Virus record (IMG/VR): IMGVR_UViG_3300020595_003017
Location: 1-64,000 of that record
DNA length: 64,000 bases
Reading direction: 5' to 3' (one strand)
From: a virus
Positions within the stretch are counted from its first letter, which is position 1. The number at the start of each line of letters is the position of its first letter. This document shows positions 6,071 through 61,028 of the stretch, in pieces. The notes beneath the pieces were generated by a model. The model ran no database searches and was not told where the DNA came from. It saw only the letters and a list, made by a program, of their open reading frames with translations. The translations under genes and the position numbers were made by a program.

Positions 6071-6506
6071 TGCTTGTGTTTATGGTCAAGATGTAAGATG
6101 GAATGCGACTAATCGTCGTGACCAAGAAATTCAACACTGGGCTGAGTCCAACGGGTTTGAACTCGTGCCTGTGTGCCCAGAGAACGAATTATTTGGTACA
6201 CCCAGGAAAGCAATTAGGTTGCGAGCCATCGATGGGGAGATAAAAGGTTTTGCAGGAAAAGATGAGGTATACGGAAAACTAAAAGATAAATGCAAAGAAA
6301 TTTCTAATAGACACAATGATATCGTTGGTTTTATTGGCATAGCAAACTCTCCATCTTGTGGATTATCTGCTGGCGTTAAGGATCTTGGCTCGACAATCAA
6401 AGCACCTATGCATCAAGCTCTTGATTGTCCAACTACAGAGATAAGTTCCATGCGGAGCGAAAAAAACAGAGACTTATTTTTAAAGAGAATAATGAAAAAC
6501 CTATGA
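6054..6506 (+). CDS. DUF523 / TudS-like (thiouracil desulfidase family) Fe-S protein
   Basis: MKILISACVYGQDVRW, PVCPE and SPSCG are the three conserved Cys motifs of DUF523. Confidence 0.8.
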   Translation: MKILISACVYGQDVRWNATNRRDQEIQHWAESNGFELVPVCPENELFGTPRKAIRLRAIDGEIKGFAGKDEVYGKLKDKCKEISNRHNDIVGFIGIANSPSCGLSAGVKDLGSTIKAPMHQALDCPTTEISSMRSEKNRDLFLKRIMKNL

Positions 6507-6706
6507 AGCCTGGAGATCTTGTTAGGTTTAGGGAGTGTTTGTTTCATGGTACTCCCAAAGTGTACACTCCATGGAAAATTGGTTTACTATTGGAATATTT
6601 TTCGTGGACTAAAATAGCCACAATAATGCACGATGGAAAAGATTATCGCATTAGAGCATCAGACGTTCAATTACATAAGCCGTCGAAAAGGTTTAAAGAT
6701 CACTAA
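6503..6706 (+). CDS. Small MKPGDLV-family (SH3/KOW-like) protein, isolated copy
   Basis: Starts MKPGDLVRF...KIGLLL; same pattern as the array at 55.7-59.0 kb. Confidence 0.65.
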   Translation: MKPGDLVRFRECLFHGTPKVYTPWKIGLLLEYFSWTKIATIMHDGKDYRIRASDVQLHKPSKRFKDH

Positions 6707-51068: not shown

Positions 51069-51095
51069 TGAACAATTTAGAATCTCTGCTATAAT
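51068..51095 (+). promoter_or_regulatory. Sigma70-type promoter (51120 and dnaE)
   Basis: TTGAAC-N16-TATAAT with TG extension; SD GAGGAGAGAG. Confidence 0.65.
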
Positions 51096-51119
51096 ATACA
51101 TATAGAAGAGGAGAGAGAA

Positions 51120-51332
51120 ATGAAAGTCGGAGATCTTGTCAAGTTCACCAATCGCAGTCACAGCCTTTATCACAAGTATTCCAAGGGTGTAGGTCTTGTT
51201 ACAGAGATTGATCACATTGCTAAATACAACAGAGGCTCCCGCCAAGAATATCTTGGAGCTAAGGTCACAGTCCAGTTCCCAGAACTAGACAAACCATCAG
51301 TCGTTACAGAATTTTCACTACAAGTAATTTAA
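51120..51332 (+). CDS. MKVGDLV-family small protein
   Basis: MKVGDLVKF...GVGLV...VTVQF...LQVI. Confidence 0.7.
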   Translation: MKVGDLVKFTNRSHSLYHKYSKGVGLVTEIDHIAKYNRGSRQEYLGAKVTVQFPELDKPSVVTEFSLQVI

Positions 51333-51345
51333 AGGAAGGTAGTCA

Positions 51346-54300
51346 ATGACTAACCGAATTGAAAGCAAGATCCCATTCGTGGGATTACATGCTCACTCAG
51401 GACTCTCACCGTTTGACGGACTGGGAATGCCTGGGGAGCATATGGACTTCGCCTACGAGAACGGGATGAACGCCCACGCCCTGACCGACCACGGTCACAT
51501 GAACGGGCTCTCGTTTCAGGTGGAGCACTTAAAGAAAATGAAGGAGGGCGGCAAAGACTTCCGAGCCATCTACGGATGTGAATCTTACTTCATTAAGTCC
51601 CATCGTAAATGGCGTACAATGTACGAGGAGCACAAGGCTAACTCCAAGAAGCAGAAGAAGGAAGAGTATGGGATGGTCATCGAGGATGAGGACCGACAAA
51701 AGAAGTTCAACCCACTCAACCGACGAAGCCATCTTGTGATGGTCGCTCAGAATCAGACAGGTCTAAATAACTTATTCAAGCTAGTGTCCGATAGTTATCA
51801 GCCTGAAAACTTCTATCGCTATCCTCGTATGGATTTTGAGATGCTAGACAAATACAACGAGGGGCTTATTATCAGCACCGCTTGTATGTCTGGCCCATTG
51901 TTTGGAGACTTCTGGAAGAACCGAGACAAGAGTCCAGACCATGTACTCTCCGCTATGCGGGATACCATTGCTCAGTTCAAGGAGATCTTCGGCGACAGGT
52001 TTTACGGAGAGGTCCAGTGGAATGATATTCCCGAGCAGCATCTCGGCAACAATTATATTATCCAAGCCTGTATGGAAATGGGAGTAGAGGTTATCAGCAC
52101 AGCCGATAGTCATTACCCACGACCAGAACTTTGGAAAGAGCGAGAGATGTACAAGCGCATCGGCTGGGGCGGCAAGATCCCAGCCTGGGCTGAAGGCGGC
52201 AATGGTCTTCCCGATTCGGTTGATGAGGTCGGCTACGAACTCTACCCGAAGAATGGCGACCAAATGTGGGAGAGTTACAAGAGTTACTCTGCCAAGCATC
52301 GCACAGAGTACGACGATACTTTTGTCCGTGACTCAATTGAGCGTACACATCACATTGCCTTTGACCGCTGTGAAGACTTCCTTCCTGACAGCACCGTCCG
52401 ACTCCCTGAGTTCGTGGTACCTGAAGGCAAGACAGCCATCCAGGCTCTGACCTCTGACGCTCTGGCGGGAATGAAAGAAAAGAATATCACAGACCCAGAG
52501 TATGTGGACCGCTTGAAGTATGAACTTAATATTATCAAGGAGCGAGGCTTCGCTCAATACTTCCTGACGATGAAAGCCATTTCAGACAAAGCCCAGGAGG
52601 AAATGCTGGTAGGCCTTGGACGGGGGTCGGCTGCCGGCTCGCTCCTGTCATATGTTCTGGACATCACACAGATTGACCCAATCAAATATGCTCTCCAGTT
52701 TGAGAGGTTTCTGACCAAGGGCGGCAAGGGCTACCCCGACATTGACTTTGATGTTGAGGAACCAATGGAACTGAAGCAGCAACTGGCAGAGGAGTGGGCT
52801 AAGATCGGCGTGAACGTTGTTCCCATCAGCAACTTCAACACACTCCAGTTGCGTTCACTTATCAAAGACATCGGTAAATTTTATGATATTCCATTCACCG
52901 AGGTCAACAAGGTGACTGGTGTGATGATGGCGGAAGCCACCCCTCTAGCCAAGAAGGCTCACGGGCAGACTGCCGGTGTCTACACTCCCACATTTGATGA
53001 GGTAAAAGAATACAGTGAAACACTCCAAGCATTTTTCCAGAAGTACCCAGAGGTTGCTACTCACGTTGATCACTTGTTCGGCAATATGCGGAGTATTTCT
53101 CGGCACGCTGGTGGGGTTGTTGTTGCGGAGAACCTTGACAGGCACATGCCCCTGATCAACTCCGGCGGTGTCATCCAGACCCCCTGGAGTGAAGGTCAGA
53201 ACGTCAGACACTTAGAACCCCTCGGATTCATTAAGTTCGACCTGCTTGGCCTGTCAACTCTTCGTATGATTTCGGGAGCTATCCGTCACATCCTTAAGCG
53301 CCACCAAGGCATTGAGGAGCCGACCTTTGAACAGGTCAGAGATTATTATAATACTCATCTCCACCCGGATACCATTGACTTTGATAATCAGCAAGTCTGG
53401 AAGGAAGTATTCCACGAGGGCAAGTGGGCTGGCATCTTCCAGATGACCAATGGTGGAGCCCAGCGGTTCTGTCAAGAAGCCCAGCCAGAATCTCTTTTGG
53501 ACTTCGCTGCTGTCACGGCTATCTTCCGCCCTGGTCCACTTAGCGCCAAGGCTCACAGCCTGTACGTCGCAAACAAGACCAACCCTGACCAAGTACATTA
53601 CGACCACCCAATCATCAAAGAAGTGCTCGGAGAAACCTATGGTCTTTTAGTCTTCCAAGAGCAGTTAGCTATGCTCGCCCACAAACTCGGCAAGGACCTC
53701 TCGCTGGATGAGGGCAACCTTCTCCGTAAGGTCCTGACCAAAAAGGGAACAGGGAAAGATAAAGTAAAAGATAACCTGTACAAGAAGTTTGTAGCCGGCT
53801 GTGCCGAACACGGATTGTCCAAAGAGGTTGCCGACAAGCAGTGGGCAAACATGGAGTTCTTCTCAGGCTACGGCTTCAACTTGTCGCACGCCGTGTCCTA
53901 CGGAGCGGTATCCTTCCAGTGTGCGTGGCTCAGTCATTACTACCCAGTGGAGTGGATGGCTGCGTTCTTGGACAAGGAGCCAGAAGACAAGAAGGCAGGG
54001 GCAATTAACACAGCCAAGTCCTTTGGCTTCGAGATCGTCCCACCCAGTATCAACAAGTCAGGACGAGTGTGGGAGATCGGTGAAGATGGCAACACTTTGA
54101 TTCAGCCGCTTGCCGGCATTAAGGGTCTGGGCGACAGTGCCATTGATCAGATTGTAGCCAACCGACCTTTCAATAGTATTGAGGAGTTTATCTTCAACGA
54201 GAATATTACATACTCCAAGCTCAATAAGAAAGCCTTGGATGTTCTGGTCAGAAGCAAAGCCCTTGACGAGTTGATGGACGACAGGTTCACAGGACTGAAA

Positions 54301-54762
54301 CACTTCTGGTCAGCCGTTGCCGTGGATAGGCCACGCAAGGAAAAGAACCTGATTGAAAACATTGACCTCTACGCTCCCGAAGGAGACTTCTCCGAGGAAG
54401 AGAAGTTGGAACACTTCGCATCGCTCACAGGGATCTTCCCCATCCACGAGATTATGCCACAGGAAATCCAAGACAACCTGATGACCCGTGGCTGTCCGCC
54501 CATCAGCGAGTACGACCCTGACCTCAAGCTGGTCTGGTTCATTCCAAGGGAAGTAAAAGTAAAGAAGACAAAGAACGGCAAAGAATACTGGGTCATCAGC
54601 ACAACCGACAGTAACGCCTTTGATGCGAACATCCGCTGCTGGGGTGTGAGAGAAGATGACAAAATCTCTCTTAATAAAGTATACATTGCTAACTTAGACT
54701 ACAATGAGAAGTGGGGATTCAGCACCCGCTCTATCAAAAGAAGTTTTAGAAGATTAACTTAA
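51346..54762 (+). CDS. dnaE: DNA polymerase III alpha subunit (family C)
   Basis: PHP motifs LHAHS, TDHG, ADSHY; GRGSAAGSL; catalytic PDIDFD; SRHAGGVV; KFDLLGLSTL; GYGFNLSHA. Confidence 0.96.
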   Translation: MTNRIESKIPFVGLHAHSGLSPFDGLGMPGEHMDFAYENGMNAHALTDHGHMNGLSFQVEHLKKMKEGGKDFRAIYGCESYFIKSHRKWRTMYEEHKANSKKQKKEEYGMVIEDEDRQKKFNPLNRRSHLVMVAQNQTGLNNLFKLVSDSYQPENFYRYPRMDFEMLDKYNEGLIISTACMSGPLFGDFWKNRDKSPDHVLSAMRDTIAQFKEIFGDRFYGEVQWNDIPEQHLGNNYIIQACMEMGVEVISTADSHYPRPELWKEREMYKRIGWGGKIPAWAEGGNGLPDSVDEVGYELYPKNGDQMWESYKSYSAKHRTEYDDTFVRDSIERTHHIAFDRCEDFLPDSTVRLPEFVVPEGKTAIQALTSDALAGMKEKNITDPEYVDRLKYELNIIKERGFAQYFLTMKAISDKAQEEMLVGLGRGSAAGSLLSYVLDITQIDPIKYALQFERFLTKGGKGYPDIDFDVEEPMELKQQLAEEWAKIGVNVVPISNFNTLQLRSLIKDIGKFYDIPFTEVNKVTGVMMAEATPLAKKAHGQTAGVYTPTFDEVKEYSETLQAFFQKYPEVATHVDHLFGNMRSISRHAGGVVVAENLDRHMPLINSGGVIQTPWSEGQNVRHLEPLGFIKFDLLGLSTLRMISGAIRHILKRHQGIEEPTFEQVRDYYNTHLHPDTIDFDNQQVWKEVFHEGKWAGIFQMTNGGAQRFCQEAQPESLLDFAAVTAIFRPGPLSAKAHSLYVANKTNPDQVHYDHPIIKEVLGETYGLLVFQEQLAMLAHKLGKDLSLDEGNLLRKVLTKKGTGKDKVKDNLYKKFVAGCAEHGLSKEVADKQWANMEFFSGYGFNLSHAVSYGAVSFQCAWLSHYYPVEWMAAFLDKEPEDKKAGAINTAKSFGFEIVPPSINKSGRVWEIGEDGNTLIQPLAGIKGLGDSAIDQIVANRPFNSIEEFIFNENITYSKLNKKALDVLVRSKALDELMDDRFTGLKHFWSAVAVDRPRKEKNLIENIDLYAPEGDFSEEEKLEHFASLTGIFPIHEIMPQEIQDNLMTRGCPPISEYDPDLKLVWFIPREVKVKKTKNGKEYWVISTTDSNAFDANIRCWGVREDDKISLNKVYIANLDYNEKWGFSTRSIKRSFRRLT

Positions 54763-54772
54763 AGTAAATATA

Positions 54773-54964
54773 ATGGAACGATGTAAACTATTTAAAACTA
54801 AGAAGACCTATCGCATACCGGTCGGATTAACGGGGGTGGTTCTAGATACTTTAGAATCATTCCCTCAACTTAAAGTTGTTGCCATTAAGTATGATGTTAG
54901 CGGTTGGAAGTTGTCTGTGATAGCCGAGAAAGATCTTGAATATTTAGAGGACCAAAATGATTGA
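54773..54964 (+). CDS. Small SH3-like hypothetical protein
   Basis: GLTGVVLD...VAIKY...IAEKDLEYL. Confidence 0.5.
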   Translation: MERCKLFKTKKTYRIPVGLTGVVLDTLESFPQLKVVAIKYDVSGWKLSVIAEKDLEYLEDQND

Positions 54965-55052
54965 CGGAAAGAAATTAATTAAAAACGAAAACGATTGTTA
55001 CAATTGTGGCTGCAATTTAAAACCAGTCTGTCCAGACTATGAAGGAGACAAG

Positions 55053-55517
55053 ATGGAAGTAAGAGTAGAGCGACTTCACGAAAACGCTAAGCTGCCTGTG
55101 CGGGCACACCCGACAGATGCCGGCATGGATTTATTCTTTTGTCCAGAGCCTAAGCCGGAATTAAAAAATCAAATCGAAACAGTCCTTCCTTTTGGATCGT
55201 CAGTGATTCCCACAGGATTAAAGATTGAAGTTCCAGAAGGGTACATGCTGGAGATTAAAAACAAATCTGGAATCGCCTCAAAGCGTGGGCTGTTAGTTGG
55301 TGCCTGTGTTGTAGATCGTGGGTACACAGGAGAAATCTTTGTGAACCTTCATAACGTGACACACAGAAACCAAACTATCCACGATGGAGATAAGGTTGCC
55401 CAAGCTGTCTTCGTCAAAGTTGACACCGATATTAAATTAGTGGAAACAGAAAAGGGTATCTACGACGAGGACACTAGTCGTGGCGACGGCTCTTTAGGAT
55501 CCACAGGTGACAGATAA
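55053..55517 (+). CDS. dut: Trimeric dUTPase
   Basis: AGMDL, IPTGL, NKSGIA, VVDRGYTGEI, RGDGSLGSTG; start set at 55053 (AAGGAG SD); an in-frame Cys-rich extension from 54957 is possible. Confidence 0.92.
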   Translation: MEVRVERLHENAKLPVRAHPTDAGMDLFFCPEPKPELKNQIETVLPFGSSVIPTGLKIEVPEGYMLEIKNKSGIASKRGLLVGACVVDRGYTGEIFVNLHNVTHRNQTIHDGDKVAQAVFVKVDTDIKLVETEKGIYDEDTSRGDGSLGSTGDR

Positions 55518-55611: not shown

Positions 55612-55668
55612 ATAAAACTTGACAGACTCTCTTTCCATGATAATATAAGATATAAGGAGAGAGTTATG
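55612..55668 (+). repeat. Early promoter-RBS cassette, copy A
   Basis: AAAACTTGACA-N16-TAATATAAG...AAGGAGAGAGTTATG; repeated at 56921 and 57334. Confidence 0.8.
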
Positions 55669-55893
55669 CATGTCGGTGACAAAGTAAAACTTACAGGCAT
55701 CACCCAGCACGGCAAAAATCGTGTTCGTGAACAGAGTGATGTCTGGGAGGTTATCCGCATGAGTCCCACAGTTTCATTTAAAACATCTGCCTCTGGTCCG
55801 TTTATGTTGTTGCAGGCCACCAAGGGTATCCATATGCGCTGGGTTTCCACCGTCAACGACGACAACTTTTCAGTAGAGGTTATTGATGAGTAA
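55666..55893 (+). CDS. Array protein 1 (MHVGDKV...EVIDE)
   Basis: ORF track; family motif. Confidence 0.75.
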   Translation: MHVGDKVKLTGITQHGKNRVREQSDVWEVIRMSPTVSFKTSASGPFMLLQATKGIHMRWVSTVNDDNFSVEVIDE

Positions 55894-56095
55894 GAATGAG
55901 TGGCGTAAAGACTTGAAGGTCGGGGACCTCGTGATGATGAAGAGCGGCGGGATGGCTATCCTTACAGAGGTGTTCTTTCGGTTTCCAGAAACTGACCCAT
56001 CCTATCCCCATATAAAGATGATTTATTGTGATGACAACACACCAGGCAGTTGTAGCGCCTGGCGAGTAGAGGAACTAATCAATGCAAGTCGGTGA
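55886..56095 (+). CDS. Array protein 2 (..LKVGDLV...EELINASR)
   Basis: ORF track; family motif. Confidence 0.75.
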   Translation: MSKNEWRKDLKVGDLVMMKSGGMAILTEVFFRFPETDPSYPHIKMIYCDDNTPGSCSAWRVEELINASR

Positions 56096-56255
56096 TTTGG
56101 TAAAACGACACGAAGGCTGGCAAGGCTGGAAGCGTCAGCAACTCGGGCTCGTAGTAAATGTAGACCGAGCCGTTATCAGAGTTCAGTGGTCTGGCGACTA
56201 CGGAACATTTTCTCACCCTATCACGTCGCTGGAGGTGCTCAATGAAAGAAGGTGA
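56082..56255 (+). CDS. Array protein 3 (MQVGDLVKRHEG...RVQW...LEVLNERR), not in track
   Basis: Read by hand; 57 aa. Confidence 0.75.
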   Translation: MQVGDLVKRHEGWQGWKRQQLGLVVNVDRAVIRVQWSGDYGTFSHPITSLEVLNERR

Positions 56256-56394
56256 TTTGGTTCGCATGGATGGCCAAACGGGAGTTATTGTTCTCGCTTG
56301 GGGCGTCATGGATGTTGTAGAGGTGCTCTGGGACGATGGGGAAACCAGAGGTCAGAACACCTGCGAGTTGGAGTTGCTCAATGAAGCCCGGTGA
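56242..56394 (+). CDS. Array protein 4 (MKEGDLVRMDGQTGVIV...EVLWDDG...LELLNEAR), not in track
   Basis: Read by hand; 50 aa; GGAGGT SD. Confidence 0.78.
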   Translation: MKEGDLVRMDGQTGVIVLAWGVMDVVEVLWDDGETRGQNTCELELLNEAR

Positions 56395-56545
56395 TTTGGT
56401 AAAATATAAAGGCAACGGAAAATGCTATCTGGTATCCGAGGTACGAAAAATTAAAGGTGAGGTAAGGTACTTCCACTTGGACACCTTCCATCCCCAAAGA
56501 GTTTTCTATTCAGATGATGTGAAGGTGATTAATGAAACCAGGTGA
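56381..56545 (+). CDS. Array protein 5 (MKPGDLVKY...VKVINETR)
   Basis: 3' part of track ORF 56336..56545. Confidence 0.75.
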   Translation: MKPGDLVKYKGNGKCYLVSEVRKIKGEVRYFHLDTFHPQRVFYSDDVKVINETR

Positions 56546-56720
56546 CTTGGTAAGAATCTCAGATTGGGATTCGGTTGGGGGTTGGAACCCCATCGGTCTT
56601 GTTTTATCTTATCCTGAAGTAAAGAATCACGGGACAACCTCTGTCCTTGTTGACTGGCTTGAATCGCCCGACACAGAATATTACTCAGTCCATCATTTGG
56701 AAATCATCAGTGAAGGCTGA
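56532..56720 (+). CDS. Array protein 6 (MKPGDLVRI...IGLV...VDW...LEIISEG)
   Basis: ORF track. Confidence 0.78.
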   Translation: MKPGDLVRISDWDSVGGWNPIGLVLSYPEVKNHGTTSVLVDWLESPDTEYYSVHHLEIISEG

Positions 56721-56931
56721 CTTTGAATATCAACTTGGCGACCTCGTATCTTTCAACCCAAGGCGACTGACGGAAGAATATATTAATGATGTTGTCCTGA
56801 CTGGCGTTGTAATCAAGCAGCGTTTAGTTTTCACTGCGGACAATAAGTTCTTGGTGCGAACCCCCGAAAGAGATTACTGGGTTTCAAGACCACGCCTAAC
56901 TTTACTTTCGAGGGCACAAAATAAAACTTGA
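56710..56931 (+). CDS. Array protein 7 (..YQLGDLV...TGVVI...LTLLS)
   Basis: GTG start overlapping the previous stop. Confidence 0.7.
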   Translation: MKADFEYQLGDLVSFNPRRLTEEYINDVVLTGVVIKQRLVFTADNKFLVRTPERDYWVSRPRLTLLSRAQNKT

Positions 56932-56978
56932 CAAACACTCTATCCATAGTAAGATAAGTTGTAAGGGAGAGAGTTATG
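56921..56978 (+). repeat. Early promoter-RBS cassette, copy B
   Basis: AAAACTTGACA-N16-TAAGATAAG...AAGGGAGAGAGTTATG. Confidence 0.8.
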
Positions 56979-57131
56979 TCGGTTCAAGACCATATTGAAA
57001 ATATTCTCAACGCCGAAGGTCAAGAGTGTCTTGACGCTTGGTATGTTGCCATCAACGAGTATCCCCAAAATGCTATGGAAATTCACGATGTGGTTGTTGA
57101 CCACCTCGTTGAAAATACCTTCTTGTATTAA
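56976..57131 (+). CDS. 51-aa acidic hypothetical protein (not array-like), not in track
   Basis: MSVQDHIENILNAEGQECLDAWY...; directly behind cassette B. Confidence 0.7.
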   Translation: MSVQDHIENILNAEGQECLDAWYVAINEYPQNAMEIHDVVVDHLVENTFLY

Positions 57132-57142
57132 GGGAGAGAGTA

Positions 57143-57337
57143 ATGATTACGGCAGCAGGTTTCGGGATGGGCGCTCTAGTCAACTTTGAGTGGAAGCTGG
57201 ACAAAGAGTTGGGTATGATTGTGCGTCAAAGCAGAGGATACTTTTGGATGGTCAAACGTCTTAGCGACGGCAAGAACCTACTCGTCCCCGAGCGGGATAT
57301 GGAAGTGCTCAGTCCAGCCAGGCCAGCGGCTATTTAA
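57143..57337 (+). CDS. Array protein 8 (..FGMGALV...LGMIV...MEVLS)
   Basis: SD GGGAGAGAG; family motif. Confidence 0.7.
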   Translation: MITAAGFGMGALVNFEWKLDKELGMIVRQSRGYFWMVKRLSDGKNLLVPERDMEVLSPARPAAI

Positions 57338-57390
57338 AACTTGACAAGCACCCTAGACGTGGTAATATAAGGTACAAGGAGAGAGATATG
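57334..57390 (+). repeat. Early promoter-RBS cassette, copy C
   Basis: AAAACTTGACA-N16-TAATATAAG...AAGGAGAGAGATATG. Confidence 0.8.
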
Positions 57391-57633
57391 TTGTACGGAA
57401 AAGAGTTAGCCCAATCAATCCAGAAACGCTGTAAGATTCAGCCAGGGATGCTGGTCAAGTCCTCGGCGGGAACCGAGGTAAACAAAATTGCCCTCGTTGT
57501 CCGGTTGTCTCCAGCCTGTGAGTTTGACCGAGATTATGAAGGATCAGAGGATCACATCTTTTATATCTGCGAGCCTTGTGATGGAACGCCAGCCTTCTCG
57601 GACTATGTAACGAATATGGAACAGGTCTCATGA
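57388..57633 (+). CDS. Array protein 9 (..IQPGMLV...IALVV...MEQVS)
   Basis: ORF track. Confidence 0.72.
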   Translation: MLYGKELAQSIQKRCKIQPGMLVKSSAGTEVNKIALVVRLSPACEFDRDYEGSEDHIFYICEPCDGTPAFSDYVTNMEQVS

Positions 57634-57803
57634 AACTCGGAACCCTAGTCCAGTTCGCCGCCTACGGGGCGGTCATGGATACTGGCTATGTTTCAAAGTA
57701 TGATGAGGACCCAAAATTCATGTGGGTAGAGTGTGTGAAGATGGGACCTCAGCGGGTCAGCAAAGACAGCACGATGTTGGAGGTGCTAAGTGAAGCCGGG
57801 TGA
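57630..57803 (+). CDS. Array protein 10 (MKLGTLVQF...TGYV...LEVLSEAG), not in track
   Basis: Read by hand; 57 aa. Confidence 0.75.
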   Translation: MKLGTLVQFAAYGAVMDTGYVSKYDEDPKFMWVECVKMGPQRVSKDSTMLEVLSEAG

Positions 57804-57987
57804 TTTAGTCCGCATCAGAAAAACCTCAATTGACCACATGTCGGCCAATTGGTTTATCTGGCACGCAGAACACAAGACCCCGCTGGTTTTGATTAAAGAA
57901 CTAAACAAAAGTTATTGGAATGTACTGAAGCCTGATGGCGAGACTGTGTTCATTCACAAAAGCCACTTGACGAAGAGAATGTATTGA
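57790..57987 (+). CDS. Array protein 11 (MKPGDLVRI...)
   Basis: GTG start; GGAGGT SD. Confidence 0.75.
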   Translation: MKPGDLVRIRKTSIDHMSANWFIWHAEHKTPLVLIKELNKSYWNVLKPDGETVFIHKSHLTKRMY

Positions 57988-58178
57988 TGGAACACAAATT
58001 ATATAATATCGGAGACTTGGTAGCGGTTGCTTCCAACCGAGTGCTTGGCATCATCACCAAGTCCAACTACTGGGCTCTTGATGAATATCTCGGTGGTGAG
58101 ATTGAGATGGTGGATGTGATGTTCGGCTCCTCGGTTTCCAAGCAATACCCAGTTCAATATCTGGTGGAGATGAGATGA
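57987..58178 (+). CDS. Array protein 12 (..YNIGDLV...LGII...VDVMF)
   Basis: ORF track. Confidence 0.72.
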   Translation: MEHKLYNIGDLVAVASNRVLGIITKSNYWALDEYLGGEIEMVDVMFGSSVSKQYPVQYLVEMR

Positions 58179-58396
58179 CCAGAGTTATCACATACCGACC
58201 CGAAGTCGGCGACATCGTGAAGTATCATATGTTTGGCTGCCGTGATAAGGTCGGCGTAGTTTTGGGAATAGAAAAAAAAGAAATGAACTACACATCCTGT
58301 AAGGTAGTTGAGGATGGTTGCTTAGTGTCTTTTAATAATAAGCCCCCCGTGTGGGAACCATTATATTCTTTGGAAAAGGTTGATGGTAAATACTGA
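58175..58396 (+). CDS. Array protein 13 (..PEVGDIV...VGVVL...LEKV)
   Basis: ORF track. Confidence 0.72.
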   Translation: MTRVITYRPEVGDIVKYHMFGCRDKVGVVLGIEKKEMNYTSCKVVEDGCLVSFNNKPPVWEPLYSLEKVDGKY

Positions 58397-58589
58397 TTTA
58401 AAAATAGGCACACTGCTCCGAGTGAGAGAGCACTGCCGGAAAAATATCACCATCCGCAACAACGGCGAGTATGGTATTTTGGCACTAAGTGCTAACGGAA
58501 AATATATTACACACGATGTATTATTTCCCAACGGAACCAGATGTATTTATATGCCCTTGAATTGGGAGGTTGTTAGTTATGCGGGATAA
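58383..58589 (+). CDS. Array protein 14 (..LKIGTLL...YGIL...WEVVS)
   Basis: ORF track. Confidence 0.7.
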   Translation: MVNTDLKIGTLLRVREHCRKNITIRNNGEYGILALSANGKYITHDVLFPNGTRCIYMPLNWEVVSYAG

Positions 58590-58836
58590 GATGTGGGAAG
58601 TTCAACAGCCCGGAACTCTTTTGCGAGCACGCAGTAGCCATCAATATGGTAAACTGGCTTTAGTCCTTCAAGAGGCTTATGCTGGACCTACGCCAAGCAA
58701 CGGCTATCCTCCCCGCCAGTATGTGAAGATGCAGTGGCTTGCCACTGGCGAGCGGTTTGAAGAAATGTTAACAAATGCTCATAATTGTTTTGACATTGTG
58801 GGTTCCTGTGATACACTAGGACCTGAGGAGAACTGA
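58579..58836 (+). CDS. Array protein 15 (..QPGTLL...LALV...MQW...FDIV)
   Basis: ATG at 58579 after GGAGGT SD. Confidence 0.7.
   Translation: MRDKMWEVQQPGTLLRARSSHQYGKLALVLQEAYAGPTPSNGYPPRQYVKMQWLATGERFEEMLTNAHNCFDIVGSCDTLGPEEN
58790..58817 (+). promoter_or_regulatory. Internal sigma70-type promoter
   Basis: TTGACA-N16-TACACT with TG extension; GAGGAG SD downstream. Confidence 0.55.
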
Positions 58837-59039
58837 TGGCTATCACACCCAAGTTCAAGCCAGGGCAACTGGTAGAGTATGCTGACCCTGACTGGTCACT
58901 TGTTGGTCTGGTCAAGTCTACACAATTCGCCCGTCGCCGAGGTGACCCAGTTTTTGTGCTGGTCCAGTGGTGTGGAAAGTATCGGAACAATGAAGAATAT
59001 ATTCCCCAATCAGAACTTAAACTAGTGGAGGGTTCATGA
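58836..59039 (+). CDS. Array protein 16 (..FKPGQLV...VGLV...VQW...ELKLVEGS)
   Basis: ORF track. Confidence 0.75.
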   Translation: MAITPKFKPGQLVEYADPDWSLVGLVKSTQFARRRGDPVFVLVQWCGKYRNNEEYIPQSELKLVEGS

Positions 59040-59563
59040 ATATTTTTGCTATCGAAGGCGATGAAGAGACAGGACAGATTGACTGGGAGAAGTCAGCACA
59101 GTCTCAAGACAACTTGCGGGTCGTCAAGATGATCCTAGAGTCTTGTCAGATCATGTCAACAGTTATCAACGAGCAGGGGCTCAAAGCTCCCTACCGTTCG
59201 TTCAATCCCAAGCACCCATCGTGCCTATGGGCTGCTGAGTCGGCAAGTAACTATATGAATCTTGCTTTGCACTGCCAGGCTATGATTGATGAGTACGAGC
59301 ATCGCTTCAACAAGACTCACAAGTGCCAAGCGGTTCTCAAGACTCTTATTGAGTTGTTTGACCCTGGCTTGTTTCCATCCATGGAGTGTACCCCGCTCCG
59401 CCTGGCCATGCCTGACGAGTTTCGATCAGACAATCCTGTAGTATCTTACCGCAGGTTCTATGCTTCTAAACCACGTTTGCGCTACCCAGTTGACAAAATC
59501 CCACAATGGGTATATGATTATCGTACTGAACCATTTGAAGTAGTTGAAGGAGAAAAAAGATGA
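59036..59563 (+). CDS. denV: Pyrimidine-dimer DNA glycosylase (T4 endonuclease V/DenV family)
   Basis: MNIF, VVKMILESCQIMS, HPSCLWA, LAMPDEF, VVSYRRFY. Confidence 0.82.
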   Translation: MNIFAIEGDEETGQIDWEKSAQSQDNLRVVKMILESCQIMSTVINEQGLKAPYRSFNPKHPSCLWAAESASNYMNLALHCQAMIDEYEHRFNKTHKCQAVLKTLIELFDPGLFPSMECTPLRLAMPDEFRSDNPVVSYRRFYASKPRLRYPVDKIPQWVYDYRTEPFEVVEGEKR

Positions 59564-59727
59564 CAACTGAATGGAACCCCAGCACCACTGTGATGAACAC
59601 CAAGACCAATGAGACGGGTCGTTTGTTAGGCCAGTTTTTTAGAAAGGGTGAGCGATGGTGGACTGTCTATTGGGAAAGCGGCGAGACCACAGCCGAGTGT
59701 GAGAAAGAAATGCTTGGTGATGAGTAA
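59560..59727 (+). CDS. 55-aa SH3-like protein, not in track
   Basis: MTTEWNPSTTVMNTKTNETGRLL...WTVYWESGETTAE; AAGGAG SD. Confidence 0.6.
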   Translation: MTTEWNPSTTVMNTKTNETGRLLGQFFRKGERWWTVYWESGETTAECEKEMLGDE

Positions 59728-59998
59728 GAAGCATTTAAAGAAACTTAAGCGAGCCAAAAAGAAAAAGAAAGATAAAAAGGTTTCCGAAGAGCAGCAGCGA
59801 CATCTAGCTAAACAGATGAACATGTTTGATAGGTTGCCTGATTCTTGTTCGGCTTGCAAAAAAGAGTTCCCTAAGACCCGCCAGGCACACACAACCTGGA
59901 AGGTCGTGGTGAGGACAGAAAAACAGCAAGTGAGACTTTTTTGCCCAGAGTGTCAGAAATTAGCCAATAAGTTGGCGGAGGAACAAAATGAAGTTTAA
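59720..59998 (+). CDS. Basic Zn-ribbon hypothetical protein
   Basis: Lys-rich N-terminus; CSAC...CPEC. Confidence 0.65.
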   Translation: MSKKHLKKLKRAKKKKKDKKVSEEQQRHLAKQMNMFDRLPDSCSACKKEFPKTRQAHTTWKVVVRTEKQQVRLFCPECQKLANKLAEEQNEV

Positions 59999-61028
59999 AG
60001 AGGCTATCACCTACGATGATATGTTACTAGTGCCTCAGTACAGTGATATTACGAGCAGAAGTGAAGTTGAGATCGGCAATAGGATGGGACACAGGCATCT
60101 CAAGATGCCGATTATCGCTTCCCCGATGGACACTGTGTCGGAGCATGAAATGGCAATCGCCATGTATCGTGCCGGAGGCATGGCTGTTCTTCATAGATAT
60201 AATACTATTCAAGAACAAGTAAGCATGGCAGAAAAAGTCACACAAGTGTCAAACTGGTCGGGACAGGTGGCCGCTGCCGTTGGTGTGACGGGCGATTTCA
60301 TCGAGCGTTCCGAGGCTTTGATCGCAGCAGGTGTTGATGTTTTGTGCATTGATGTGGCTCATGGTCATCATATTTTAGTAAAAAAAGCTCTTGAGCAATT
60401 GCGAAACGAATATGATAATCATATTTACATCATCGCAGGAAACGTCTGCACGCTGGAGGGTATTAACGATGTTGCTGATTGGGGGGCTGACGCTGTACGG
60501 TGTAACATTGGTGGCGGCTCCATTTGTTCTACTAGGACTGTCACAGGCCACGGTTTACCCGGCCTCCAAACGATCTTCGACTGCGCAAGAACAGACCGCC
60601 AAGTCTCGATCATCGCAGACGGCGGCATCAAAACCTCGGGAGATATTGTTAAAGCTTTAGCAGCCGGCGCAGATTTTGTAATGTGCGGCTCTTTATTAGC
60701 AGGCACCACCGAAAGTCCAGGAAAAGTAATTCACCTGCCTGACAATAACCGAGTAAAAGAATATAGAGGGATGGCCTCCAAAGACGCCCAACTGGACTGG
60801 CGCAGCAAATCATCCACCCCAGAAGGCGTGGCGTCTTATATCCCATTCAAGGGTAGCGTCTTAGATATTTTGACAGACCTGAGCGGAGGTATCAAGTCTG
60901 GATTTTCTTACAGCGGCGCTCGGAATTTATCAGAACTACAACACAAGGCGGAGTGGGCGAGGCAAACTTCTGCCGGAACCCATGAAAGTAGCACTCATAT
61001 TTTTTCTCAAGAAGGGAAACAAAAATAA
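59988..61028 (+). CDS. guaB: IMP dehydrogenase / GMP reductase family (no CBS domains)
   Basis: YDDMLLVP, IIASPMDTV, IDVAHG, IAGNV, GGGSICSTR, IIADGGI, YRGMAS, PEG. Confidence 0.88.
   Translation: MKFKEAITYDDMLLVPQYSDITSRSEVEIGNRMGHRHLKMPIIASPMDTVSEHEMAIAMYRAGGMAVLHRYNTIQEQVSMAEKVTQVSNWSGQVAAAVGVTGDFIERSEALIAAGVDVLCIDVAHGHHILVKKALEQLRNEYDNHIYIIAGNVCTLEGINDVADWGADAVRCNIGGGSICSTRTVTGHGLPGLQTIFDCARTDRQVSIIADGGIKTSGDIVKALAAGADFVMCGSLLAGTTESPGKVIHLPDNNRVKEYRGMASKDAQLDWRSKSSTPEGVASYIPFKGSVLDILTDLSGGIKSGFSYSGARNLSELQHKAEWARQTSAGTHESSTHIFSQEGKQK

Follow-up and report, generated by a model that had tools for sequence, protein, structure and literature searches.

The hyperplastic regions of T4-type phages are described as containing promoter-early stem-loop (PeSL) cassettes and as undergoing modular shuffling (Arbiol et al. 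2010, PMC2839356). Large phages can also show lineage-specific expansions of a small domain, an example being Bacillus phage G with about 35 zinc-ribbon copies (Iyer et al. 2021, PMC7824862). The locus analysed here is an array of very short genes at positions 55666-59039 of a 64,000-nucleotide stretch of viral DNA, referred to below as the window, which comprises the first 64 kb of a 190,528-base IMG/VR virus record (IMGVR_UViG_3300020595_003017) rated complete. The array proved to be an old tandem expansion of one stand-alone SH3-like barrel, whose copies have diverged until no more than their first and last strands can be recognised in the sequence, and its dual-coding joints and promoter-leader cassettes make each gene a self-contained module.

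Composition of the array

The interval 55666-59039 is filled by 17 consecutive open reading frames (ORFs) on the + strand, encoding proteins of 50-88 amino acids (aa). Sixteen of these belong to one family, the exception being 56976-57131, and they have in common a motif x-G-[DTMAQ]-[LIK]-[VL] at the N-terminus, a G-x-V strand, in many cases also V-x-W, and at the C-terminus a strand resembling L-E-V-[LI]. An earlier sequence-only reading of the window had claimed one pattern for 16 of 17 consecutive ORFs, which was borne out by alignment and by a family hidden Markov model (HMM) that left 56976-57131 unmatched. The same reading had pointed to three genes missing from a program-made ORF list; these exist as 56082-56255, 56242-56394 and 57630-57803, with ratios of nonsynonymous to synonymous substitution (dN/dS) among orthologues of 0.18-0.19. 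The ORFs of the array are as follows.

55666..55893, + strand: member 1, 75 aa; weakest by sequence; the model built from its orthologues alone shows a 5-stranded SH3-like barrel that includes a long hairpin
55883..56095, + strand: member 2, 70 aa; start TTG 55883 or ATG 55886; internal G-D-L-V written GGG GAC CTC GTG
56082..56255, + strand: member 3, 57 aa; overlaps member 2 by 14 nt
56242..56394, + strand: member 4, 50 aa; canonical 14-nt dual-coding joint
56381..56545, + strand: member 5, 54 aa counted from the internal ATG at 56381; canonical joint
56532..56720, + strand: member 6, 62 aa; canonical joint; modelled, top structural match the Spt5 KOW domain
56710..56931, + strand: member 7, 73 aa if the start is GTG at 56710; start uncertain
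56976..57131, + strand: non-member small ORF, 51 aa; conserved in relatives; preceded by promoter cassette 2
57143..57337, + strand: member 8, 64 aa; motif G-A-L-V; promoter-less copy of the GGGAGAGAG leader in front
57388..57633, + strand: member 9, 81 aa; internal G-M-L-V
57630..57803, + strand: member 10, 57 aa; upstream overlap of 4 nt, ATGA
57790..57987, + strand: member 11, 65 aa; GTG start, canonical 14-nt joint
57984..58178, + strand: member 12, 64 aa; start TTG 57984 or ATG 57987
58175..58396, + strand: member 13, 73 aa; found in only a few relatives
58380..58589, + strand: member 14, 69 aa; motif G-T-L-L
58570..58836, + strand: member 15, 88 aa; start uncertain (TTG 58570 or ATG 58579); C-terminal extension
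58836..59039, + strand: member 16, 67 aa; motif G-Q-L-V; 4-nt overlap between its stop and the start of the Pyr_excise-like gene

The non-member 56976-57131 gave no Pfam or PHROG match. Its orthologues are 67-82% identical, with a dN/dS of 0.15, and its position in the array varies among relatives.

Recovery of the family and selection on its members

Leave-one-out HMM searches were run against the 680 stop-to-stop ORFs of the window. Fourteen of the 16 left-out members ranked 16th-20th, right behind the 15 training sequences and two outliers, and 55666 and 57143 were weaker, at ranks 32-33. With the full HMM all 16 members scored E<=2e-8, followed by the ORFs at 51081-51329 (2e-6) and 6425-6703 (4e-4), and all others gave E>1. 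These two ORFs contain solo members of the family.

51120..51332, + strand: solo member, 70 aa; directly upstream of the DnaE-type polymerase gene; whole pattern in the translation
6503..6706, + strand: solo member, 67 aa; joint sequence of the array also present at its start; HMM match limited to the N-terminal motif, but full strand pattern in the translation

The gene at 51120 reached E 3.7e-8 under a larger profile. Four ORFs outside the array had been named as likely relatives, and the HMM and the translations uphold 6503 and 51120; 54773 (54773-54964) and 59560 (59560-59727) were rejected as members at the sequence level, with HMM E-values of 1.4 and 6.5. The two rejected ORFs flank the array and have a vaguely similar strand pattern. 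Orthologues of 59560 are present in relatives, and none of 54773 was found in the fetched related loci.

The related loci, 80 in all, were fetched from other viruses using the Pyr_excise-like gene as an anchor. The window-only HMM gave 238 matches at E<0.01 on the gene strand of these loci and 0 on the opposite strand. The HMM searches recovered the members reciprocally, and among the window ORFs a clear gap in E-value set them apart. The arrays of close relatives held 10-16 members, and each window member had 3-20 orthologues. Pairwise dN/dS of the 16 members was 0.09-0.31, against 0.09 for the dUTPase and 0.04 for the Pyr_excise-like gene used as controls, values that are rough because dS is near saturation for several genes. 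These ratios indicate that the array members are translated genes under purifying selection. Positive selection on the members was considered and is unsupported by pairwise dN/dS.

Paralogues within the genome are 6-39% identical and orthologues 45-98%, indicating that the duplications are older than these phages. The proposal of an expanded, diversified repertoire on one scaffold agrees with this divergence of the paralogues, with member isoelectric points (pI) ranging from 4.1 to 9.8 and with the conserved orthologues of each gene.

Structural models and surface variation

AlphaFold models were made for two of the 16 members, 56532 and 55666, using independent alignments. The 56532 model, built from a 70-sequence family alignment, has 5-6 strands and a predicted local distance difference test (pLDDT) score of 88.9, while the 55666 model, built from its own nine orthologues only, is a 5-stranded barrel with a pLDDT of 80.4. 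Both models fall within the SH3-like small-barrel fold, which is defined as a highly bent antiparallel barrel with five strands and ~50-70 residues, and their matches are all SH3-like barrels. Foldseek comparison of the 56532 model gave weak E-values, and every match was an SH3-like barrel (NdhS/Ssl0352, PWWP, YorP, PetP, Spt5 KOW, Tudor and R67 DHFR). A Foldseek-independent search with the same model gave the KOW domain of M. jannaschii Spt5 (4zn3_A), with a Z score of 8.0 and a root-mean-square deviation of 2.0 Å over 55 residues, followed by PsaE (7.5), human DSIF KOW6-7 (7.3), R67 DHFR (7.1) and a Tudor domain (6.9). The top matches of the 55666 model were ~110-aa ribosomal protein chains, which we take to be bL19, together with PetP and chromo/SAWADEE domains.

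When the family profile was compared with solved proteins it reached Spt5 at E 3e-4, summed over several weak KOW-repeat stretches, and eS4 at E 3e-3. The Pfam KOW family (PF00467) was unmatched by the 16 members even at E<=1 and by 118 database relatives at E<=0.01, and DUF1918 (PF08940) was unmatched by the window members and matched only by fused distant relatives such as P0002. At 50-88 aa the members stand alone, neither attached to an NGN domain nor lying inside a ribosomal protein. On the strength of the models the members are predicted to be SH3-like (KOW-type) small barrels. The small SH3/KOW/Tudor-like barrel originally proposed from the strand pattern fits both models, their structural matches and the weak profile matches to KOW proteins, and structure prediction followed by Foldseek comparison returned an SH3-like barrel for both modelled members.

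The KOW resemblance could mean that the members share a class of target, as stand-alone KOW mimics that would all bind the ribosome, RNA polymerase/Rho/S10 or nucleic acid and so tune the coupling of host transcription and translation. The ranking of structural matches, with Spt5 KOW best and NusG KOW and eS4 next, points this way, as do the profile matches to Spt5 and eS4; further ribosomal chains among the structure matches are presumably uL24 and bL19. We consider a shared target unlikely, given that no member reaches Pfam KOW and that the fold matches to PsaE, R67 DHFR, Tudor and PWWP are equally good. Beyond the core residues there is no surface conservation across paralogues: each orthologue group, for example that of 55666, has its own invariant residues and no surface position is common to all. 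Together with the varied pI, these group-specific residues are more in keeping with a common scaffold that has many partners than with a single ligand for all.

Dual-coding joints

At six joints in the array the neighbouring genes share 11-14 nt, and the form ATG/GTG-AAR-NNN-GGT-GAY is seen at five of these. The TGA stop of the upstream gene is made of the last base of the downstream Gly codon and the first two bases of the Asp codon (GGT-GAT), and the upstream residues N-E-x-R are the other-frame reading of the downstream M-K-x-G. The upstream L-E-V codons (xTG GAG GTx) put GGAGG 5-7 nt ahead of the next start, where it forms the next ribosome-binding site. The window members belong to a mini-gene family of the form MKxGDLV...LEVINESR, being recovered reciprocally by HMM and in many cases linked by the dual-coding ATGAARNCNGGTGA joint.

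Joint statistics were obtained from 703 unique family ORFs at 153 loci. Exactly three codons separate the start from the motif Gly in 486 of the 703, and the TGA is embedded in the Gly-Asp codons of 380 of these 486 (78%). The motif Gly is encoded by GGT in 79% of the 486 compared with 32% in the long genes of this phage, and the Glu of the C-terminal motif by GAG in 285 of 332 cases compared with 46% genome-wide. The joint repeats within the genome are 63-85% identical.

Nine to ten members carry G-x-L-V 9-19 codons inside the gene and have no upstream overlap, and here the motif codons vary (GGG GAC CTC GTG, GGC GAC CTC GTA and GGA GAC TTG GTA are examples). The terminal motifs are features of the proteins, as seen from these varied codons, from the two models and from database matches that run end to end.

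Promoter cassettes

A 56-nt repeat, present in three copies that are 68-79% identical, splits the array into three units. The order of elements in the cassette is AAAACTTGACA, 16-17 nt, TAATAT or TAAGAT (TG-extended in two copies), the AAGGAGAGAG leader and an ATG.

55618..55661, + strand: promoter cassette 1; CTTGACA, 16 nt, TG-preceded TAATAT and AAGGAGAGAG leader; the ATG of 55666 follows after 4 nt; repeat family D2
56927..56971, + strand: promoter cassette 2; repeat copy heading the non-member 56976
57340..57383, + strand: promoter cassette 3; repeat copy before member 9

The combination of CTTGACA-N16/17-TAATAT/TAAGAT with a GGAGAG leader occurs three times in the array, four times in the whole genome and not once in shuffled sequences, and of the five AACTTGACA-type promoters that the 190-kb genome has, three sit in the array. 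No terminator-like hairpin was found on the + strand beside the three promoters. The claim of early expression from strong promoters stood with respect to the promoters, of which three near-consensus sigma-70-like cassettes are present; early transcription by the host RNA polymerase can only be called plausible, by reason of the sigma-70-like consensus and the T4 model.

Five more family members, all with G-D-[IFL]-V close to the start, form a second cluster beyond the window at ~89.7-91.2 kb of the genome (L082:3226-4696), ~1.6 and 2.8 kb downstream of the other two AACTTGACA-type promoters (86954 and 88123). More single family matches were observed near 101.4 and 103.5 kb.

Variation among related phages

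Order maps were drawn for 14 relatives. Gene order is broadly kept, single modules have been gained and lost, and 57630, 58175 and the non-member 56976 are each missing from several relatives. In the related locus L009, 56082 is joined straight to 56532 and 56242-56381 is carried further downstream; in L002 and L006, 56242 precedes 56082, and L003 contains additional 55883-like and 56381-like copies. The DNA breakpoints in L009 and L006 fall inside a 25-45-nt joint repeat that can be aligned to both window joints. The comparison of copy number and order proposed by the sequence-only reading revealed arrays of varying size and order, in which single modules are gained, lost and permuted.

Alleles have also been replaced. 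Member 11 (57790) occurs in two allele classes among relatives, of about 55% and about 90% identity: it is 88-98% identical in L009, L015, L017, L016 and L007 and 51-60% identical in L003, L001, L002 and L006 (for example, 91% in L009 and 60% in L003). DnaE ranks the relatives oppositely, being 98% identical in L003 and L001 and 91% in L009 and L015, and gene 57984, which adjoins 57790, follows the DnaE ranking. A sliding-window comparison puts the changes in identity at 57790 and 57984, exactly where the genes meet. Among the relatives, whole genes have been gained, lost, permuted and replaced by other alleles, with breakpoints at joints.

This variability bears on the possibility that the barrels form one assembly, in which coupled chains would supply near-equimolar subunits for hetero-oligomers such as Sm rings or the R67 DHFR tetramer. 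Close relatives differ in copy number and order, which is hard to reconcile with a complex of fixed stoichiometry, and interface residues are not conserved. We hold an assembly to be quite improbable, although the genes overlap and are presumably coupled, fused multi-repeat relatives carry 3-10 barrels per chain and the fold matches include R67 DHFR.

Gain, loss and permutation of modules, together with the huge diversity of the family, might instead be produced by largely selfish or near-neutral cassettes, whose recombinogenic ends copy and move modules while the proteins matter little; the array region is comparable to the hyperplastic regions of T4-type phages (PMC2839356). All 16 members are under purifying selection (dN/dS 0.09-0.31), however, and phages that differ by up to 14% in DnaE still have the orthologues in common and much of their order. 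The three strong promoter-like cassettes also argue against such cassettes, and this explanation is given little credence.

The joint may itself be a selected in-register recombination site, making the array a self-shuffling cassette library in which any two joints could recombine and would always restore two intact genes. This proposal is tentative and rather doubtful. If true, co-infecting phages would gain, lose, reorder and exchange binder modules in a manner resembling integron-cassette exchange, but through homologous recombination within coding sequence, and the array would act, at the level of populations of abundant marine phages, as a system that diversifies early host-interaction proteins.

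Distribution of the family

A profile search of 1.84 billion representatives retrieved 1352 proteins (clusters at 50% identity) at E<=1e-3, mostly of 50-80 aa and matched end to end. G-D-L-V is present in 102 of 118 small database relatives, and most end in L-E-V-[IV]-[SN]-E-[SAN]-R. A strict 30-nt joint pattern was found in 75 stretches of IMG/VR contigs, and among the 73 outside the loci already fetched, family genes are present in 72, with as many as 31 in one locus (<=15 kb). The family genes of these joint-pattern loci are all on one strand, one locus excepted. Among viral predicted structures (BFVD) the best matches, at template modelling (TM) scores of 0.66-0.89, are numerous uncharacterised proteins whose accession numbers lie close together, suggesting that similar arrays are present in deposited uncultured-virus genomes.

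Pfam gave no family for any member or for any of the 118 database relatives, with essentially no matches for the latter, and Pfam and PHROGs searches with every member returned nothing below E 0.02. No GenBank phage record was matched by blastn with the array or by tblastn with two members, and the only name attached to the family in a collection of 5.8 billion proteins was 'hypothetical protein'. Literature searches on DUF1918 in phage, SH3-like paralogues in T4-like marine phages and arrays of small KOW proteins found no paper on the family. The family is so far confined to uncultured marine phages. Its description as an undescribed system holds for the databases and literature searched, but the system is not unique to this genome, given the joint in 75 IMG/VR stretches and arrays of up to 31 genes.

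Some relatives are fused. These proteins (P0001, P0002, P0019 and other long matches) have 300-1700 aa and 3-10 barrels of the same superfamily, and their repeats still begin with Met-Lys; some of the long ones carry additional N- or C-terminal domains. P0002 (370 aa) and P0019 (307 aa) consist of 3-5 barrels in a row, and every barrel starts M-K-F-K-V-G-D. P0002, which lies on a contig of 1.6 kb without informative surroundings, passes the DUF1918 cut-off (E 3.6e-16).

Genomic context

The genome codes for a T4 gp23-type capsid protein, and its source is an uncultured marine T4-type phage. The long ORFs of the window are all on the + strand, and no tRNA genes were found in its 64 kb. The array is located in the replication and nucleotide-metabolism region of the phage genome, between the following genes.

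51346-54762, + strand: DnaE-type polymerase, upstream of the array
54957-55517, + strand: dUTPase, upstream of the array
59036-59563, + strand: Pyr_excise-like gene with a phrog_624 match, downstream of the array
59988-61028, + strand: IMPDH/GMP-reductase-family gene, downstream of the array

The match of 59036-59563 to Pfam Pyr_excise is barely over the cut-off (26.0 bits against 23), while that to phrog_624 is strong (E 1.4e-36). By dN/dS (0.04) it is the most conserved gene in the neighbourhood of the array. The fold matches to PsaE, NdhS and PetP prompted the idea of a cyanophage, which was dropped, as psbA was not found in the phage genome and the fold matches are generic.

Discussion

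The explanation we favour for the locus, with about an even chance of being right as a whole, combines an old tandem expansion of a barrel, modules chained by dual-coding joints, and a role of the products as early accessory binders. Host RNA polymerase would transcribe the array early from the three sigma-70-like promoters, and translation of the genes would be coupled along each chain. At many joints the codons for the last strand of gene n (L-E-V, xTG-GAG-GTx) provide the ribosome-binding site of gene n+1, and the start of gene n+1 (ATG-AAR-CCN-GGT-GAT) contains the TGA stop of gene n in the other frame. The proteins may act as accessory binders with a shared scaffold and differing surfaces, each for another host or phage partner, in host takeover or counter-defence. 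The joints would mainly serve translation, with in-register recombination as a by-product or a selected trait. Diverse surfaces, promoter cassettes and accessory behaviour together favour early host-interaction or counter-defence binders.

A number of observations weigh against this explanation. When both terminal motifs were removed the leave-one-out HMMs failed, giving ranks from 1 to 364. Core-only hhalign comparison of orthologue groups gave a median score of 9.25 compared with 7.7 for controls, a small shift given without a significance test, and just two of 120 pairs exceeded 50% probability. The detectable similarity consequently sits in the two ends (G-D-L-V and L-E-V-L), and the case for common descent of the 16 cores is made by motifs, size, position and two models. 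Those models cover a limited share of the family, two of 16 members, and structural Z scores of 6-8 are to be read with the warning of the tool that values below about 8 may mean a common arrangement only. Overall dN/dS gives no sign of an arms race. Recombination at the joints is likely to be infrequent because the joint repeats are only 63-85% identical, and 'early' is deduced from consensus matches.

The failure of core-only profiles would also be expected of an artefact, in which unrelated short ORFs carry motifs that are mere by-products of repeated junction DNA, and the overlap does dictate the C-terminal N-E-x-R and the choice of GGT and GAG codons. Such an artefact is already largely refuted and is now extremely improbable: G-x-L-V is kept with varied codons where it is not overlapped, two independent models have one fold, there are zero opposite-strand matches and all genes are under purifying selection. 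Unrelated folds, a lack of reciprocal HMM recovery or an origin of the motif in junction DNA had been named in advance as findings that would speak against a family. HMM recovery and the two folds agree with a family, and the last point applies in part, since the overlapping joint DNA has a part in shaping the C-terminal motif and the exact choice of the first five codons.

The preferred explanation, an expansion of chained barrel modules acting as early binders, draws attention to a large family (1352 clusters at 50% identity, with as many as 31 genes in one array) without a name or a Pfam or PHROG family. This phage devotes ~3.4 kb of early-looking genome space to it and has at least 24 of its genes genome-wide. 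The array shows how very short genes stay modular, translated and exchangeable. If the members are specific binders of host factors, they would represent a natural library of small stable scaffolds and a means of learning which host functions marine T4-type phages need to shut down.

Comparison with known systems

The fold of the array proteins is ordinary. The closest described domains are the KOW domains of NusG/Spt5 and of ribosomal proteins such as eS4, which share with the window family a ~55-residue five-stranded barrel, an opening G-D-x-V strand and a Gly before strand 2, and which provide its best structural match as well as the weak Spt5 and eS4 profile matches. The window family differs from KOW (PF00467) proteins in having no Pfam match, NGN domain or ribosomal context, and PsaE, R67 DHFR, Tudor and PWWP match it nearly equally well. 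DUF1918 (PF08940), YorP, NdhS, PsaE and PetP resemble it in fold class and size, and the window proteins match none of these families by sequence.

The zinc-ribbon expansion of Bacillus phage G is similar in that tens of diverged copies of a small domain of unknown function occur in a large phage genome, but the fold is another one and the dual-coding joint is undescribed there. The system most comparable in organisation is that of the PeSL cassettes. In both cases a T4-type phage has series of small genes between which strong sigma-70-like promoter cassettes recur, and relatives show insertion, deletion and replacement of whole small genes at repeats. The array promoters have no adjacent stem-loop terminator, unlike those of the PeSL system. 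PeSL modules are separated by an intergenic cassette and are unrelated ORFans, whereas most modules of the array are joined through a 14-nt overlap that codes in both genes and all are of one protein family.

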